NCBI GenBank assembly: GCA_018651725.1
Contig: JABIDK010000006.1
Location: 48,482 to 112,481, forward strand
DNA from: Candidatus Falkowbacteria bacterium
GTDB lineage: Bacteria > Patescibacteriota > Patescibacteriia > JAACEG01
DNA length: 64,000 nucleotides
Reading direction: 5' to 3'
Shown here: positions 13,688 through 17,069 of the stretch, piece by piece
How the letters are laid out: each line of letters opens with the position of its first letter
Position numbering within the stretch: the stretch's first letter is position 1
Made by a program: the position numbers and the translations under genes
Notes under the pieces: model-generated
Seen by the model: only the letters and a program-made list of their open reading frames with translations
Told to the model about the DNA's origin: nothing
Databases searched by the model: none

Positions 13688-14269
13688 ATGAAGATAATTG
13701 AGATAAGAAAAAATAGTGAAGAAAAAGATCTCTCACAAAAAAGAATAATGGATATATTTTCTTTTTCTGGAAACTGGATATTTTTTAGTTTAATTTACAC
13801 CATATTTTTTGTTTTTTTTATTGTAAATGCTAATCAAGTAATGGCTATTGAATATCCAGGACGTACAATATGTAAGCTTTATGGTGGCGACTTAGGTGAT
13901 CAAAATATTTGCCACTTAGAGACAAGAGAAAAATGTGATCCTTCTGATAAAGGATTTGAAATTGAAAATGAATTTATTGCTCCTTGTAAAAATTATGCTG
14001 AAATGCCTTGTGCTAAACTCGGAGAAACCCGTACTTTTAATAAGTGCTGTGATGACCTTAAGTGTTCTTATAGAAAAGGATACTTCACAGAAAGTTGTAA
14101 ACATAATTTTCCAATTGGAATACATTTATCAGCTTGTATAAAATGTGGAGACAATATATGCGATGAAAAATATGAATCTAAATGCAATTGCCCACAAGAT
14201 TGTGAAATAACTGTATTTGAAAAGATAATTAATTGGTTTAAAATTTTTTTAATCTATTTTAACGGGTAA
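13688..14269 (+). CDS. Cys-rich secreted/membrane-anchored protein, unknown function
   Basis: Signal-anchor 'IFFSLIYTIFFVFFIVNANQVMA'. The mature part has ~20 Cys. The true start may be an internal Met. Confidence 0.4.
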   Translation: MKIIEIRKNSEEKDLSQKRIMDIFSFSGNWIFFSLIYTIFFVFFIVNANQVMAIEYPGRTICKLYGGDLGDQNICHLETREKCDPSDKGFEIENEFIAPCKNYAEMPCAKLGETRTFNKCCDDLKCSYRKGYFTESCKHNFPIGIHLSACIKCGDNICDEKYESKCNCPQDCEITVFEKIINWFKIFLIYFNG

Positions 14270-14275
14270 AATTTT

Positions 14276-15007
14276 ATGAAGAAATATTATTTTCTTTTTT
14301 TGTTTTCAATAATATTATTAAGTGGTTGTACAAAACAAGATAATTTACATCAACAAAACAAAGGGGGTGCTAACCCAAAAAGCGCACTAGAAGTGTTGTT
14401 TGATATGGGTGAATGCGATAAAATAAAAGCACCTAATATAAAAAATGATTGTTATATTAAACAAGCTATAGCAAAAAAAGATGTGCAAATATGTGAAAAA
14501 ATAAATAATAAATTTAGTCCTAATAAAAGTGAATGTTATGAGGATTTAGCTATAAGTGAGAATAATATCGATATTTGCAATAAAATCACTGACAGTGATT
14601 TAACAAAATTAAAATGTAGAGTATCAATAAATAAAGATATTAAGCTATGTGATGAGTCAGAAGGTTTTAAAAATTCTTGTTTGATTAAATTGGCTATGGC
14701 GACTAAAGATATATCAATTTGTAAACAAATTAATCATAAGCCTAGATATTCTCTATGTTTGTCGTCAGTGGCAGAGTCAGCAAAAAGCAAAGATTTTTGT
14801 GATATTATTGATGATTTGCACATGAAGGAATTATGTTTTATAAGAGTGGCGATAGAAACAAAAAATCCAAAAATGTGCAATGAAATATCTTTCGAAGAAA
14901 ATAAACAAATATGTTTTTTTGGCTTAGCGATAGAAACGTTTGATATAGATTTGTGTGATGATTCTGGTATAAAAAAAAGATGTAAAGATATTATTAACAA
15001 TAAATAA
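14276..15007 (+). CDS. Lipoprotein with seven tandem ~18-aa Cys-bracketed repeats
   Basis: Lipobox 'LLSGC'. Repeats of form C-x4-(A/L)(I/M)(A/E)-x4-7-(I/L/F)C-x2-I, e.g. 'CYIKQAIAKKDVQICEKI', 'CLIKLAMATKDISICKQI', 'CFIRVAIETKNPKMCNEI'. Confidence 0.55.
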   Translation: MKKYYFLFLFSIILLSGCTKQDNLHQQNKGGANPKSALEVLFDMGECDKIKAPNIKNDCYIKQAIAKKDVQICEKINNKFSPNKSECYEDLAISENNIDICNKITDSDLTKLKCRVSINKDIKLCDESEGFKNSCLIKLAMATKDISICKQINHKPRYSLCLSSVAESAKSKDFCDIIDDLHMKELCFIRVAIETKNPKMCNEISFEENKQICFFGLAIETFDIDLCDDSGIKKRCKDIINNK

Positions 15008-15012
15008 ATTAT

Positions 15013-15264
15013 ATGACAAAAATAATTTCTATATTTTTTATATTATTAGTGTTTACCGGCTGTAGTAGCAAGTTTACTAATAGCAACAAAAATTATTCAT
15101 CGAATTCTGATCAATTTTTATGCACAAAAGATTCTGATTGTGTAGATTGTTGTAACGGTCAATGTGTTAATTATGAGTGGTGGAAGAAAAACGGGTCAAA
15201 AATAGAATGTAAATGTAAAACATCAACGTGTGTTTGTATTAATAATGAATGCGCTAATAAATAA
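15013..15264 (+). CDS. Small Cys-rich lipoprotein
   Basis: Lipobox 'VFTGC'. 12 Cys in ~60 mature residues ('CTKDSDCVDCCNGQCVNYEWW...'). Confidence 0.45.
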   Translation: MTKIISIFFILLVFTGCSSKFTNSNKNYSSNSDQFLCTKDSDCVDCCNGQCVNYEWWKKNGSKIECKCKTSTCVCINNECANK

Positions 15265-15335
15265 AAGAATTATTAAAATTAGCTCTAGTAAGTATTGACA
15301 TAAGTTGATATTTTTTGTAGTATAGAAACTATTAT

Positions 15336-15407
15336 CGCGGGGTAGAGCAGTGGCAGCTCGTCGGGCCCATAACCCGAAGGTCGTAGGTTCGAATCCTACC
15401 CCCGCAA
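15336..15407 (+). tRNA. tRNA-fMet (initiator), anticodon CAU
   Basis: Folded by hand. Acceptor 'cgcgggg'/'ccccgca' has a C1xA72 mismatch. U8 is present. D-arm is 'gagc-agtggca-gctc'. Anticodon stem 'tcggg/cccga' has three G:C pairs. Loop 'cccataa' gives CAU at 15368-15370. T-arm is 'gtagg-ttcgaat-cctac'. Discriminator is A. CCA is not encoded. Confidence 0.8.
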
Positions 15408-15408
15408 C

Positions 15409-15681
15409 ATGGATACAAATAAACCTTACGAAGTTTATATTATAAAGAGTGAATGTGGTAAATTATACACTGGAATGAGCGAAAATGCTGATATTAGGCT
15501 TAAAAATCATAACGCAGGTATATCAAAATGGACAAGTAAGTATCAAAATTGGAGAATGGTTTATAAAGAGAGTTTTCCTAACTATAGTGAAGCCAGAAAA
15601 AGAGAAATTTATTTGAAGAAACAGAAGGGTGGTAACGGATTGAAAAAAATAATAGAAGGTGGCAGCTCGTCGGGCCCATAA
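15409..15681 (+). CDS. GIY-YIG nuclease-family small protein (YhbQ/YazA/UPF0213-like)
   Basis: 'PYEVYIIKSECGKLYTGMSENADIRLKNHNAG...WRMVYKESFPNYSEARKREIYLKK' carries the GIY...YTG motif. The conserved Arg/His/Glu spacing matches standalone ~90-aa GIY-YIG proteins. The last 8 codons and stop lie inside the partial tRNA repeat. Confidence 0.75.
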   Translation: MDTNKPYEVYIIKSECGKLYTGMSENADIRLKNHNAGISKWTSKYQNWRMVYKESFPNYSEARKREIYLKKQKGGNGLKKIIEGGSSSGP

Positions 15682-15726
15682 TCCCGCCGCGGCGGGATCG
15701 TAGGTTCGAATCCTACCCCCGCAACA
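15653..15726 (+). repeat. Partial direct repeat of tRNA-fMet (D-arm to 3' end), diverged in anticodon-stem/variable region
   Basis: 'tagaaggtggcagctcgtcgggcccataa' and 'tcgtaggttcgaatcctacccccgcaaca' match the tRNA at 15343-15409. A palindromic 'tcccgccgcggcggga' replaces 'cccgaagg'. The 5' acceptor strand is missing. Confidence 0.7.
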
Positions 15727-15734
15727 GTTAAAAC

Positions 15735-15768
15735 AAAAAAACGCTTTGAATAGCGTTTTTTTGTTTTT
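15735..15768 (+). terminator. Rho-independent terminator
   Basis: Stem 'aaaaaacgct' pairs with 'agcgtttttt' around loop 'ttgaat'. A T-run follows. Confidence 0.6.
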
Positions 15769-15812
15769 CATATTTTTTTAAATATGCTATAATATTTACA
15801 AGTAAAATAACT

Positions 15813-17069
15813 ATGTTTTTATCGCAAAATATTTTTAGTAAAATTAAGAAAATATTTGTTTTAGCTATTGTGATGGTTGTTTTTGGATTCGGTATTCAAA
15901 ATAGTTATAATGTTTTGGCTTATCCTAGTGATGGCACTACGGAGGTAAAAAAAATTGAGAGAGAAATTAGTGATCAGGAAAAAAGAATTCAGGAGTTAAA
16001 AGAAAAAGCAAAAAAATATCAAAAAAATATTGAACAAAAAACAATGCAAATATCCAGTTTAGAAGAGCAGGTATTGGTTTTTAACAATAGAATAGCTAAA
16101 AAAGAATTGGATATTGAAATCGCTGAGGAAGAGATAGTCCAAACAAAGGGAAAAATTGAACAAAAAACTTTAGAGATAAAGGATAAAGAAACAGAAATAA
16201 AAGAGCAAAAAGATAAAGTCGCTGATTTTATTAGGCTTATTTATAAAAACGACCAAGTTAGTTATTTAGAAGTTTTGATATTGAACGATTCTTTTTCCGA
16301 TTTTTTTAATTACTTAACTTTTACCGAAGATATTCAATATAAATTAAAAGAAGTTTTAGACTCTGTTATTGCGCTTAAGGAAAAATTGGAAATGGACAAA
16401 GATTTATTGGAGCGTGAAAAACAAAATTTAGAAAAATTAAAGATAAAATTAGTTCAGGATAACGACAAGTTAAGCGAAGAAAGAGAAATCAAAGAGGCAA
16501 TTTTAAGAGAAACAAGGTACAGTGAAAGTTTATTTAAGAGGTTATTGCAAAAAGCAAAAGAAGATCAAATTAACGTCGATCGGGATATTTCACAACTGGA
16601 AAGAGAAAAAAGAAAGTTGCTTGAAGAAGAGGAAAGCAGAAGAAAGCTTTTGGATGACACCGGAACGTTGTCGTGGCCGGTTGACCCAAGTCGCGGTATA
16701 ACTGCTTATTTTCACGACCCTGATTATCCTTATCGATATTTATTCGAACACCCCGGAATTGACCTTAGGGTTTCTCAGGGAACTCCGCTTAAATCACCGG
16801 CAAACGGTTATGTAGGACGAGCCAGAGACGCTGGAATGGGATATAGCTATATTATGATTATTCACGACAATGGGGTATCAACTGTTTTTGGACATGTTAG
16901 TAAAATTTTTGTTCAAGAAGATGAATTTGTAACCAGAGGTCAGATAGTTGGGAAGAGCGGGGGGGCGCCGGGTACCCCAGGAGCTGGAAGATTTACAACC
17001 GGAGCGCACCTTCATTTTGAGGTTCGTTTAAACGGAATTCCGGTTGACCCACTTGATTATTTACCTTGA
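15813..17069 (+). CDS. M23-family metallopeptidase with N-terminal coiled-coil (EnvC-like)
   Basis: The coiled-coil region is rich in E/K heptads. The C-terminus has 'HPGIDL', 'GHVS' and 'GAHLHFEV', matching the LytM/M23 HxxxD and HxH motifs. Confidence 0.8.
   Translation: MFLSQNIFSKIKKIFVLAIVMVVFGFGIQNSYNVLAYPSDGTTEVKKIEREISDQEKRIQELKEKAKKYQKNIEQKTMQISSLEEQVLVFNNRIAKKELDIEIAEEEIVQTKGKIEQKTLEIKDKETEIKEQKDKVADFIRLIYKNDQVSYLEVLILNDSFSDFFNYLTFTEDIQYKLKEVLDSVIALKEKLEMDKDLLEREKQNLEKLKIKLVQDNDKLSEEREIKEAILRETRYSESLFKRLLQKAKEDQINVDRDISQLEREKRKLLEEEESRRKLLDDTGTLSWPVDPSRGITAYFHDPDYPYRYLFEHPGIDLRVSQGTPLKSPANGYVGRARDAGMGYSYIMIIHDNGVSTVFGHVSKIFVQEDEFVTRGQIVGKSGGAPGTPGAGRFTTGAHLHFEVRLNGIPVDPLDYLP

Follow-up and report, generated by a model that had tools for sequence, protein, structure and literature searches.

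A GIY-YIG nuclease gene between an initiator tRNA and its partial copy: a probable homing-type element of a tRNA-linked family

Why does a gene for a small predicted GIY-YIG nuclease lie between an intact initiator tRNA gene and a hairpin-bearing partial copy of that same gene? This arrangement was found in the window, the 64-kb stretch of Candidatus Falkowbacteria DNA analyzed here. Integrase insertion classically leaves an intact tRNA with a direct repeat of its 3′ part displaced behind it, and a preliminary description labeled the repeats attL/attR-like, proposing either a minimal selfish element that targets tRNA-fMet or the remnant of a larger integrated island. The reading favored here, at a probability of roughly 60%, is that the inserted unit is one copy of a miniature selfish homing-type family, in which a stand-alone GIY-YIG nuclease of ~85–100 aa spreads through tRNA homology.

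The locus and its parts

The intact tRNA-fMet gene of the preliminary description was confirmed by a single ARAGORN call (Table 1) and by the Rfam tRNA model, which scored 64 bits across 15336-15407, with discriminator base A73 at 15407. The bacterial initiator marks can be read from the sequence: a C1/A72 mismatch, an anticodon stem closed by three G:C pairs, and A11:T24. A promoter lies ahead of the tRNA and a terminator behind the fragment; this promoter is the only credible one upstream of the ORF, and its block TATTGACATA...TTGTA is also conserved in two orthologous loci that lack the insertion (L103 and L108). An Rfam cmscan of 14800-16300 at E<=10 returned the tRNA alone and no ribozyme or other RNA family. 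A group I intron in the tRNA gene was considered and rejected, there being no Rfam ribozyme core and the tRNA being uninterrupted according to ARAGORN.

Table 1. Features of the tRNA-ORF-fragment locus (positions in the window)
Feature	Positions	Strand	Basis or remark
Sigma-70-like promoter of the tRNA transcription unit, TTGACA-17-TAGTAT	15295-15323	+	10/12 matches
Initiator tRNA-Met(CAT) gene, intact, no encoded CCA	15336-15408	+	ARAGORN, single call; Rfam
GIY-YIG nuclease ORF, 90 aa, single domain, UPF0213/SLX1-like	15409-15681	+	Pfam
Inserted unit, 317 bp: ORF, then partial tRNA copy with palindrome	15410-15726	+	Repeat spacing, empty alleles
B′, copy of tRNA D-loop to anticodon loop (~15-38), encodes GSSSGP*	15659-15681	+	23/23 identical to 15350-15372
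Palindrome/hairpin TCCCGC-CGCG-GCGGGA	15682-15697	+	Stands in for tRNA positions 39-46
D′, copy of T-arm, 3′ acceptor strand and 'ACA'	15698-15726	+	29/29 identical to 15381-15409
Intrinsic terminator closing the tRNA-ORF-fragment unit	15730-15767	+	Counterpart of the terminator directly after the tRNA in empty alleles

The ORF was likewise confirmed as a GIY-YIG gene, its residues 9-75 scoring 54.5 bits with Pfam PF01541, for which the cut-off is 22.6 (E=1.5e-14). Its ATG begins 2 nt past the discriminator base, and there is no room upstream for a Shine-Dalgarno sequence. As had been noted before, the 3′ end of the reading frame runs into tRNA sequence: the last codons, GGSSSGP*, are copied D-arm and anticodon arm, and the stop codon (15679-15681) corresponds to T36-A37-A38 of the copied anticodon loop.

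The tRNA repeat, previously placed at 15653-15726, is present and ends at 15726; it starts, however, at 15659 and consists of two blocks. Positions 15350-15375 match 15659-15684 at 25 of 26 sites, and 15381-15409 match 15698-15726 at all 29, with a spacing of 317 nt, so the T-arm and 3′ acceptor strand are kept exactly, as described earlier. Two repeats of this length (26 and 29 nt), perfect or nearly so, inside 700 nt are far beyond chance. The perfect palindrome TCCCGCCGCGGCGGGA, also correctly described before, swaps out exactly 8 nt, 'cccgaagg' (15373-15380); no other 9-bp GC-rich perfect palindrome was found in the window. The inserted unit begins just past the first 'gcaaca' and ends with the second one.

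The predicted protein contains the catalytic-core residues and the beta-beta-alpha-beta-alpha fold of the GIY-YIG superfamily. Y20, G22, R30, H34 and E66 are invariant in an alignment with nine homologs, the first motif in the family consensus is YxVY, and a C-terminal KKQKGGNG motif is specific to the clade of the window ORF. In the AF2 model (pLDDT 83), residues 7-13, 19-24 and 49-56 form strands, and residues 27-35 and 59-72 form helices. With this model, Foldseek identified UPF0213 proteins and the SLX1 nuclease domain as the nearest solved structures; the sequence matches were PDB 1ywl (E 2.3e-11) and 1zg2 (E 9.9e-10), both UPF0213. No match was obtained to NCBIfam models, PADLOC defense-system families or PHROG phage families.

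The ORF recurs on 23/23 contigs from independent assemblies, and the six places shown, representing those 23, share neighboring genes. The locus is not an assembly artifact, since independent assemblies carry the ORF with identical neighbors. The dN/dS values of 0.06-0.17 in 15 pairs, and 0.32 for a truncated copy (L020), indicate that the ORFs are under purifying selection.

Empty and filled alleles, and a family across bacteria

Comparison with relatives, which the preliminary description had proposed, revealed an uninterrupted tRNA locus in two of them (L103 and L108). Their M23 peptidases are 64-65% identical to that of the window, and the order promoter-tRNA-terminator-M23 is the same, with ORF and fragment absent and 'ccccgcaaca' running directly into the terminator. 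Because the tRNA is followed directly by the terminator in these relatives, the insertion is exactly 317 bp with base-precise limits. The locus thus shows a presence/absence polymorphism at one defined site, filled in the window and L105 and empty in L103 and L108. A further relative, L101, has no tRNA at the orthologous position and is uninformative on filled versus empty state.

These limits bear directly on the idea of a larger integrase island or prophage with its attB at the 3′ end of the tRNA. The locus shares with tyrosine-integrase islands and prophages a regenerated intact tRNA and a partial copy displaced as a direct repeat, and Cys-rich secreted proteins are encoded nearby. However, the whole insertion is 317 bp and bounded by two empty alleles; the 90-aa GIY-YIG gene is the only family-matching ORF between the repeats, with no tyrosine or serine recombinase. 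The same mini-layout occurs at >60 loci, including mirror-image versions 5′ of the tRNA, and unlike in integrase islands the partial copy may lie on either side, carries conserved hairpins and overlaps the ORF. The Cys-rich trio that the preliminary description had considered part of such an island lies upstream of the tRNA promoter. A remnant of this kind is therefore extremely unlikely, and the attL/attR label was abandoned.

The closest relatives share the layout of this locus. L007, L008, L009 and L105 each contain an intact iMet gene, 'gcaacATG', the ORF, 'CTCATAA', a TCCCGC..GCGGGA hairpin, the T-arm and the acceptor strand. L011 resembles the window from ORF to fragment, but the tRNA copy ahead of the ORF is truncated; ARAGORN accordingly calls none, and the ATG lies ~60 nt downstream. 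L105 has a chimeric T-arm in its partial copy, with a 5′ strand of the window type (GTAGG) and a 3′ strand of the local type (CCCCT); the crossover falls inside the T-loop, leaving the T-stem unpaired. This looks like a recombination footprint.

Such a footprint would also fit an origin that does not depend on the nuclease, namely Campbell-type integration of a small circle (ORF, fragment) via T-arm/acceptor homology, or uptake of foreign DNA followed by RecA recombination at homologous tRNA sequence, with the nuclease doing another job such as autoregulation, addiction or resolution of recombination intermediates. A circle of ORF, B′, hairpin and D recombining within D yields exactly the observed order, tandem arrays and unit-number polymorphism are the usual products of repeated or unequal recombination, and the nearest characterized relative of the protein is the structure-specific SLX1 nuclease domain. 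That small-circle recombination or unequal crossing-over can give the same layout without a nuclease also counts against homing. On the other hand, RecA-dependent integration would have very little homology to work with (29 nt), the purifying selection seen for the nuclease demands a payoff for the element, and hairpins placed precisely at conserved loops suggest targeted lesions rather than passive recombination. This origin is considered unlikely.

Beyond the orthologous locus, 81 distinct homologous ORF copies were found in Patescibacteria, Acidobacteriota and other MAGs. Of these, 61 abut an intact tRNA gene on the same strand, which is within ~120 nt upstream in 42 and abuts or overlaps the stop codon in 19; most of the remaining copies lie at contig ends or next to pseudo-tRNAs. 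The elements occur on either side of the tRNA, those on the 5′ side as mirror images, and in most tRNA-abutting copies a partial copy of the same tRNA occupies the opposite flank of the ORF. At least ten tRNA isotypes host the ORFs (iMet, Ile, Ala, Arg, Asn, Gln, Val, Phe, Ser and Thr). Three types of borrowed stop codon were distinguished: TAA from iMet positions 36-38; TAG from positions 8-10 of a downstream intact tRNA, with an overlap of 10-11 nt at 11 loci; and TGA from the anticodon stem in one soil clade.

The family is also dynamic. Tandem ORF arrays occur in L014 and L019, loci with more than one copy are L008, L014 and L054, and the near-identical contigs L021 and L022 differ in the number of ORF-less units. 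Decayed copies include one that has lost its start codon (L012) and the truncated ORF of L020, and L070 contains an ORF-less full-length tRNA-Arg copy with a hairpin, nearly identical to its neighbor. Identity between ORFs at Ile, Ala, Val, Thr and Phe genes is 72-75%, as high as in same-isotype pairs, which suggests that the family switches its tRNA target between isotypes. Patescibacteria and Acidobacteriota elements share ~50% protein identity and an identical 8-nt replacement. Thus, the proposal of a minimal selfish element with a GIY-YIG gene as sole cargo gains from the empty sites, shared layout, arrays, decay and footprint; its restriction to tRNA-fMet does not stand.

Could the ORF instead be a domesticated or housekeeping UPF0213-type gene in a tRNA operon, helping, for example, to repair or maintain tRNA loci under heavy transcription or to process nucleic acids, with the tRNA fragments as by-products of local rearrangement? 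The strong purifying selection and the fixation on all 23 contigs of the window's population would fit a host-beneficial gene as well, and to that extent count against homing. The protein family is very large (16,838 clusters at E<=1e-3, ~1,400 at E<=1e-10), the nearest structures are uncharacterized UPF0213 proteins of ordinary bacteria, and searches of IMG/VR, INPHARED and PLSDB revealed no phage or plasmid relatives of the ORF and hence no candidate vectors. Against this stand the empty orthologous locus in close relatives, the tandem arrays, multiple copies per locus, start-codon loss, truncation and ORF-less remnants, the occurrence of one ORF clade at different isotypes, the chimeric T-arm, and a disabled tRNA copy whose conserved hairpins a host function would not need. 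Stable vertical single-copy inheritance without flanking repeats, as in UPF0213/YhbQ housekeeping genes, was not found. The preliminary description had regarded a recurrence of the same architecture in relatives as the mark of a housekeeping arrangement; the architecture does recur, but its distribution is patchy and dynamic. A host gene of this kind is accordingly improbable.

Hairpins in the redundant tRNA copies

In this family, GC-rich hairpins with arms TCCCGC/GCGGGA and a variable loop are found in place of, or splitting, the D-loop, positions 39-46 or the T-loop. They are confined to the redundant tRNA copy, and none was found in genuine intact tRNAs. Of 22 distinct iMet rows, 17, drawn from Patescibacteria as well as Acidobacteriota, have the hairpin in place of exactly 8 nt (39-46); the other five are mis-anchored, e.g. 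by a second hairpin that follows. In the D-loop the hairpins are inserted without loss of tRNA sequence, at ~20-22 (mostly 21/22) in Ile, Ala and Arg genes and at 20/21 in Val genes. The T-loop is replaced in some members, and comparison of L029 with L027 revealed a newly gained T-loop hairpin. Hairpin density was 5.2/kb within 250 nt of the ORFs versus 0.84/kb elsewhere. Among 21 distinct iMet hairpins, the 5′ arm TCCCGC was found in 20 and the 3′ arm GCGGGA in all, together with 20 different loops. Loops are 3-4 nt long, and other clades have long variable apical stems. The type of hairpin tracks the ORF clade. Judging from this comparison, the palindrome is a conserved, position-specific part of the family and not incidental. 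The invariance of the arms suggests recognition by something, probably the nuclease.

Several simpler accounts of the palindrome were rejected. A mimic of the iMet acceptor stem (CCCGC/GCGGG) in a T-arm minihelix is not general, the hairpin sequence being unchanged at Asn, Gln and Asp genes despite their differing acceptor stems; moreover, the partial copies of L105, L008 and L018 have chimeric or decayed T-arms. Eco29kI and Cfr42I are GIY-YIG enzymes, and the palindrome center CCGCGG was considered as a restriction-type site; this center is hypervariable in relatives. Terminal inverted repeats of the MITE or transposon kind are excluded by the location of both arms on one side of the ORF, and a snap-back or P-nucleotide origin by arms unlike the adjacent native tRNA sequence.

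The partial tRNA and hairpin might alternatively act mainly as RNA, as a tRNA-like 3′ or 5′ UTR for processing, mRNA stability or protein-binding autoregulation, rather than as a target or immunity determinant at the DNA level. The hairpin lies directly after the stop codon in type 1 elements and in the 5′ UTR in type 2; its varying loops and long apical stems fit recognition of a folded stem better than that of a double-stranded palindrome; and the predicted RNA fold, in which the palindrome forms a 7-bp stem, has z = -4.9. The iMet-clade 3′ arm GCGGGA could instead pair with the acceptor strand CCCCGC. However, the T-arm structure is not conserved, being unpaired in L105 and decayed (D′) beside intact ORFs in L008, L018 and L072, the hairpin sequence is independent of tRNA identity, and ORF-less copies far from any mRNA also carry hairpins (L070 and L049). 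A primarily RNA-level role is therefore very unlikely.

A proposed route of spread and its relation to known systems

How could such an element spread by homing? The ORF, which has neither a promoter nor a ribosome-binding site of its own, would be transcribed from the tRNA promoter by read-through. RNase Z, cutting the CCA-less tRNA after A73, would release a nearly leaderless mRNA starting with 'CAUG'. This route is not general, since Acidobacteriota elements contain a terminator-like hairpin between tRNA and ORF. The nuclease would then nick or cut a tRNA gene that lacks the element, at predicted sites within positions 39-46 (iMet clade) or at 21/22 (D-loop clade). Repair of the break on an element-bearing template, one end pairing with the intact tRNA and the other with the partial copy, would copy in both the ORF and the partial copy, i.e. 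homing by gene conversion via tRNA homology. The essential tRNA works without splicing because the element sits between the intact tRNA and a redundant partial copy. The hairpins, located where the copy once had conserved tRNA loops, may represent disrupted target sites in the redundant copy, and may also narrow the stretch in which a precise deletion of the element would be viable.

Two further points weigh against homing. In every filled allele an intact, presumably cleavable tRNA copy remains, even though the loops of the partial copy are replaced by hairpins, so that the usual self-immunity is unexplained and a nickase, very low expression or another target must be assumed. In addition, it is not obvious how a protein of 90 aa with a single domain would recognize a long site.

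A more specific version of the homing account is possible but doubtful: nuclease and hairpin may form a two-part system, in which the enzyme recognizes the TCCCGC/GCGGGA basal stem of the folded hairpin or cruciform and drives hairpin cassettes by gene conversion into conserved loops (D-loop 21/22, 39-46 and T-loop) of redundant tRNA copies. If so, the hairpins would themselves be small mobile units, of a kind so far undescribed, that disable spare tRNA copies and lock the ORF in place. The element would hop between isotypes via shared D-arm/T-arm sequence, in effect an intron-free form of homing into essential RNA genes.

Among known systems, SegB of the T4 tRNA gene cluster is a free-standing GIY-YIG homing endonuclease of T-even phages (PMC2330249). 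Its gene shares with the present one an intergenic rather than intronic location, an association with tRNAs and a proposed spread by break repair with co-conversion of flanks. SegB-type enzymes are, however, phage-borne, over twice as long and equipped with a DNA-binding domain, and are not known to have a partial tRNA duplication, loop-replacing hairpins or borrowed stops, whereas the element here is chromosomal and encodes a single domain of ~90 aa. UPF0213/YhbQ proteins (COG2827; PDB 1ywl and 1zg2) are the best matches in sequence and fold and share the size and single-domain build. Their solved members were deposited as hypothetical proteins, and no report of tRNA linkage was found for them in the literature; the window protein differs in having no NCBIfam match and in its clade-specific C-terminus. 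SLX1, which also has a zinc-finger domain, contains a similar GIY-YIG core, and the conserved basal stem and free loop size of the hairpins hint at a comparable structure recognition. SLX1 requires its partner SLX4 for activity (PMC8287910). It is a eukaryotic repair enzyme and not a mobile element.

Group I introns, some with homing endonuclease genes, have been described in tRNA genes of Patescibacteria and Cyanobacteriota, including tRNA-fMet (PMC13011429). Like the elements proposed here, they are selfish insertions at conserved tRNA loops in the same phylum; the present elements differ in having no ribozyme and in keeping tRNA function by duplication rather than splicing. The term GIY-YIG is absent from that study, which describes no tRNA-linked small GIY-YIG genes with pseudo-tRNA hairpins, nor was an account of them found in the literature, of which coverage was incomplete. 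The tRNA-linked miniature GIY-YIG elements thus apparently constitute an undescribed family that is widespread in several bacterial phyla.

Homing endonuclease genes usually persist in essential genes by means of self-splicing introns or inteins. The family described here appears to solve the essential-gene problem otherwise, leaving one tRNA intact, parking the nuclease gene between it and a disabled duplicate, and taking over the promoter and even the stop codon of the tRNA. tRNA genes, that of the initiator tRNA especially, are among the most conserved bacterial sequences and would therefore provide near-universal landing pads, which could explain how elements only ~50% identical carry the same 8-nt replacement in Patescibacteria and Acidobacteriota. 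A 90-aa predicted nuclease with a defined hairpin partner would also be an attractive minimal biochemical system. In annotation, gene callers render tRNA sequence as protein tails in this family, and its hairpin-bearing pseudo-tRNAs are miscalled by tRNA finders.

The insertion at the initiator tRNA gene

The arrangement claimed in the preliminary description, an initiator tRNA followed by a GIY-YIG gene and a partial copy of the same tRNA, was recovered with ARAGORN, Rfam, Pfam and a repeat search, with slightly corrected coordinates (table). The tRNA gene scores 64 bits with the Rfam tRNA model, does not encode CCA, and carries the hallmarks of an initiator in its sequence: A11:T24, a C1/A72 mismatch and an anticodon stem whose lower end consists of three G:C pairs. 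The ORF (Pfam GIY-YIG, E=1.5e-14) runs into the partial copy, whose D-arm and anticodon arm encode its final codons (GGSSSGP) and its stop, T36-A37-A38. The palindrome stands in place of exactly 8 nt, cccgaagg (15373-15380 in the intact tRNA), corresponding to tRNA positions 39-46, which cover the 3' side of the anticodon stem and the first nucleotides of the variable loop. A ribosome-binding site would not fit in front of the ORF, and no convincing promoter belonging to the ORF itself was found upstream. The same ORF occurs on 23 independently assembled contigs, with the same gene context in all six places displayed, which stand for these.

Features of the initiator tRNA locus in window coordinates
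Feature	Position	Strand	Remarks
Sigma-70-like promoter	15295-15323	+	5' of the tRNA
tRNA-Met(CAT)	15336-15408	+	ARAGORN; single tRNA in 64 kb
GIY-YIG ORF, 90 aa	15409-15681	+	Start overlaps the tRNA end, gcaacATG
Direct repeat 1	15350-15375 vs 15659-15684	+	25/26 identical
Palindrome TCCCGCCGCGGCGGGA	15682-15697	+	Between the two copied tRNA blocks
Direct repeat 2	15381-15409 vs 15698-15726	+	29/29 identical; spacing 317 nt
Intrinsic terminator	15730-15767	+	3' of the tRNA fragment

Comparison loci were found via orthologues of the downstream M23 peptidase, and their contigs were fetched and aligned. Two of them, L103 and L108 (M23 64-65% identical to that of the window), have the conserved promoter block of the window and an initiator tRNA nearly identical to its own. 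Past ccccgcaaca, the sequence enters a terminator at once and then the M23 gene; both the ORF and the tRNA fragment are absent between tRNA and M23. From these empty alleles, the window unit 15410-15726 is therefore an insertion of 317 bp. The alternative that it is the remnant of a larger island, including the Cys-rich trio at 13688-15264, was not borne out: the trio precedes the tRNA promoter, outside the insertion, and is missing from L103 and L108, where a Wzy_C gene on the other strand is found instead. The upstream side of the tRNA is also variable, but unrelated to the 317-bp insertion. The trio comprises three predicted secreted or lipoproteins, none with a Pfam match on record.

The gap between tRNA and M23 seems to act as a landing place more generally. 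At a third relative locus (L102 1-410, M23 67% identical), an unrelated 82-aa ORF fills this interval behind the initiator tRNA; it has its own ribosome-binding site and terminator. Two further M23 relatives, L101 and L107, have no tRNA at the corresponding position, and a long imperfect inverted repeat with ~50-nt arms was noted 5' of the M23 gene in the latter (L107 1230-1350).

A GIY-YIG family linked to tRNA genes

The protein consists of a single GIY-YIG domain (AF2 model, pLDDT 83), with Y20, G22, R30, H34 and E66 invariant among homologues. Among solved structures, the uncharacterised UPF0213 proteins EF2693 and BH0048 come closest, and the SLX1 nuclease domain is next. No match was found in NCBIfam, PADLOC or PHROG, and no relatives in the phage and plasmid collections searched. 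The wider protein family comprises 16,838 clusters (50% identity) at E<=1e-3 and 1,431 at E<=1e-10.

The closest homologues of the window ORF are 51-70% identical, and four of the five nearest loci fetched (L007, L008, L009 and L105) repeat the window layout: intact initiator tRNA, gcaacATG, ORF, CTCATAA, a TCCCGC-N3-4-GCGGGA hairpin, and the T-arm with the 3' acceptor strand. The fifth, L011, keeps the ORF-to-fragment portion, with a truncated upstream tRNA copy and the ATG ~60 nt farther on. Since GGC TCA TAA is the anticodon loop in this layout, many database proteins end in GS*. As an annotation artefact, translated tRNA sequence also forms N- or C-terminal tails on database models of the family (P0003, P0005), e.g., RFESGP and GSRVQIP from the T-loop.

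Genome scanning revealed more copies in Patescibacteria, Acidobacteriota and MAGs labelled Bdellovibrionales, and a metagenome scan yielded 379 relatives, 80 of which were kept. The tRNA linkage is family-wide, as counted over 81 distinct ORF copies from loci L007-L100, and the target tRNA is partially duplicated. In type 1 (42 of 81, mostly initiator tRNA), an intact same-strand tRNA lies within ~120 nt upstream of the ORF. In type 2 (19 of 81; Ile, Ala, Arg, Asn, Gln, Val, Phe, Ser, Thr and initiator Met), the stop codon is abutted or overlapped by an intact tRNA into which the ORF reads, and the partial copy is a 5' tRNA fragment upstream. The type 2 stop falls at T8-A9-G10, or at most 1 nt off, in 11 loci; the ORF of L106 extends to the anticodon-loop TAA, and one soil clade uses the anticodon-stem TGA. 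Most of the other 20 copies sit at the edge of a contig or in an array, or adjoin tRNA-like sequence uncalled by ARAGORN.

Some loci hold more than one such gene or trace. Just upstream of intact tRNA-Asp and tRNA-Phe genes lie 5' fragments of these tRNAs with whole or half hairpins (L008 2390-2800, L021 1610-1660, L105 505-550); some are ORF-less and resemble remnants of type 2 elements. In L008, a second GIY-YIG ORF, 38% identical, adjoins tRNA-Asp, with different palindromes (TCAGCCATAGGCTGA). MAGs labelled Bdellovibrionales (L014 1682-2092, L016 657-1067) carry two different GIY-YIG subfamilies in one locus, one after the initiator tRNA with the short hairpin and the other after a second tRNA-Met, whose partial copy in L014 is interrupted within the anticodon loop by a 36-nt hairpin.

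The ORF is under purifying selection, with dN/dS of 0.06-0.17 in 15 pairs and 0.32 for the L020 copy, which is truncated and has no tRNA fragment. Turnover is seen as tandem ORF arrays (L014, L019), a lost start codon (L012), and ORF-less units in near-identical contigs (two in L021, one in L022-L024). ORF identity across different isotypes (72-75%) is as high as within the same isotype, and the target has therefore switched. Recombination has left a footprint in L105, the locus of the closest non-self relative (70% aa): the T-arm of its partial copy is chimeric, with a 5' strand of the window-lineage type (GTAGG) and a 3' strand of the local type (CCCCT), placing the crossover inside the T-loop. 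In L007, a compensatory pair sets the T-stem of the partial copy and of an older upstream remnant apart from the intact copy. The partial copy matches the local tRNA in most loci, with zero mismatches in 9 of 22, as would be expected if the copy arose locally or is still being converted.

Hairpins in the redundant tRNA copies

Around the ORFs (within 250 nt), GC-rich perfect hairpins reach 5.2/kb, sixfold their density in the remainder of these loci (0.84/kb). They are position-specific and confined to the redundant tRNA copy. D-loop hairpins are pure insertions at about positions 20-22, mostly 21/22 (Ile, Ala, Arg), with Val at 20/21; in initiator copies the hairpin takes the place of positions 39-46; and a third site is the T-loop, by replacement. 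No hairpin was found in any genuine intact tRNA of the examined loci, apparent cases being either regular tRNA arms or pseudo-copies that ARAGORN miscalled, such as the "tRNA-???" of L070 (1582-1674) and the "tRNA-Lys" of L097 (1869-1951).

Of 22 distinct rows in the initiator clade, 17 show a replacement of exactly 8 nt, and these include both Patescibacteria and Acidobacteriota; the remaining five could not be properly anchored. In 21 distinct hairpins of this clade, TCCCGC forms the 5' arm 20 times and GCGGGA the 3' arm every time, and the 3-4 nt between the arms take 20 different sequences. Because the arms are invariant despite dS near saturation (up to ~1.9, even for ORF pairs 82-87% identical) and only ~50% ORF identity between Patescibacteria and Acidobacteriota, a sequence-specific constraint on them is indicated. 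Other clades have long variable apical stems, CCCGCCCGAACG...CGTTCGGGCGGG and CCTGCCTGCC/GGCAGGCAGG, the latter with a compensatory C-to-T/G-to-A change. Free loop length and variable apical stems are more in keeping with recognition of a folded stem than with a double-stranded dimer site. A palindrome in L041 (1468-1483) is identical to that of the window, including its CGCG centre, in a contig whose ORF is just 46% identical; given the loop variability, this indicates either convergence or recent exchange.

Hairpin type tracks the ORF clade, not the tRNA isotype. Gain of a hairpin can also occur without the ORF: L029 has an extra second hairpin replacing the T-loop relative to the ~95% identical L027, and an ORF-less full-length tRNA-Arg copy in L070 equals its intact neighbour except for two base changes and a 20-nt hairpin inserted at 21/22.

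Proposed mechanism and relation to known systems

The element is most likely a homing-type selfish element. As such it would work like T4 SegB, a free-standing homing endonuclease gene located among tRNA genes (PMC2330249), as the present element also is. Its layout is a miniature look-alike of the tRNA-restoring layout of integrase islands, and it contains no DNA-binding domain, integrase or intron. Full-text literature searches, in a collection of incomplete coverage, gave no account of small GIY-YIG genes associated with duplicated tRNAs and with hairpins that replace loops, and an earlier description may exist; PMC13011429, which recently surveyed tRNA-gene introns in Patescibacteria, describes no such element either. 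What might turn out to be new in kind is the putative partnership of hairpin and nuclease.

For expression, tRNA and ORF would share one transcript. RNase Z cuts bacterial tRNA precursors lacking CCA after the discriminator, and cleavage of the window precursor would leave an effectively leaderless mRNA beginning with CAUG. In Acidobacteriota a terminator-like hairpin precedes the ORF, and this route is therefore not universal. For spread, a broken empty tRNA gene may be repaired on a filled template, the left end annealing to the intact copy and the right end to the partial copy, so that ORF and fragment are copied in. If both ends paired with the partial copy, the hairpin alone would be copied, viable only if another intact tRNA copy exists; this would explain ORF-less tRNA copies with hairpins. 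Arrays could arise by unequal exchange or by repeated invasion of the still-intact copy. The hairpins may represent disrupted target sites, and would shrink the stretch permitting viable precise deletion to the 29 nt of copied T-arm and acceptor strand after a 39-46 hairpin, or ~17 nt after a T-loop hairpin. As a filled allele retains an intact tRNA copy, self-immunity would need a weak nickase, scant expression or another target.

The window tRNA itself has the anticodon loop CCCAUAA (15366-15372), in which position 33 (15367) is C, not the near-universal U. C33 is otherwise typical of initiator tRNAs of eukaryotes; here it recurs in related Patescibacteria with the element present or absent (L103 2361-2433, L108 1290-1362, L105 29-102, L021 1127-1200).
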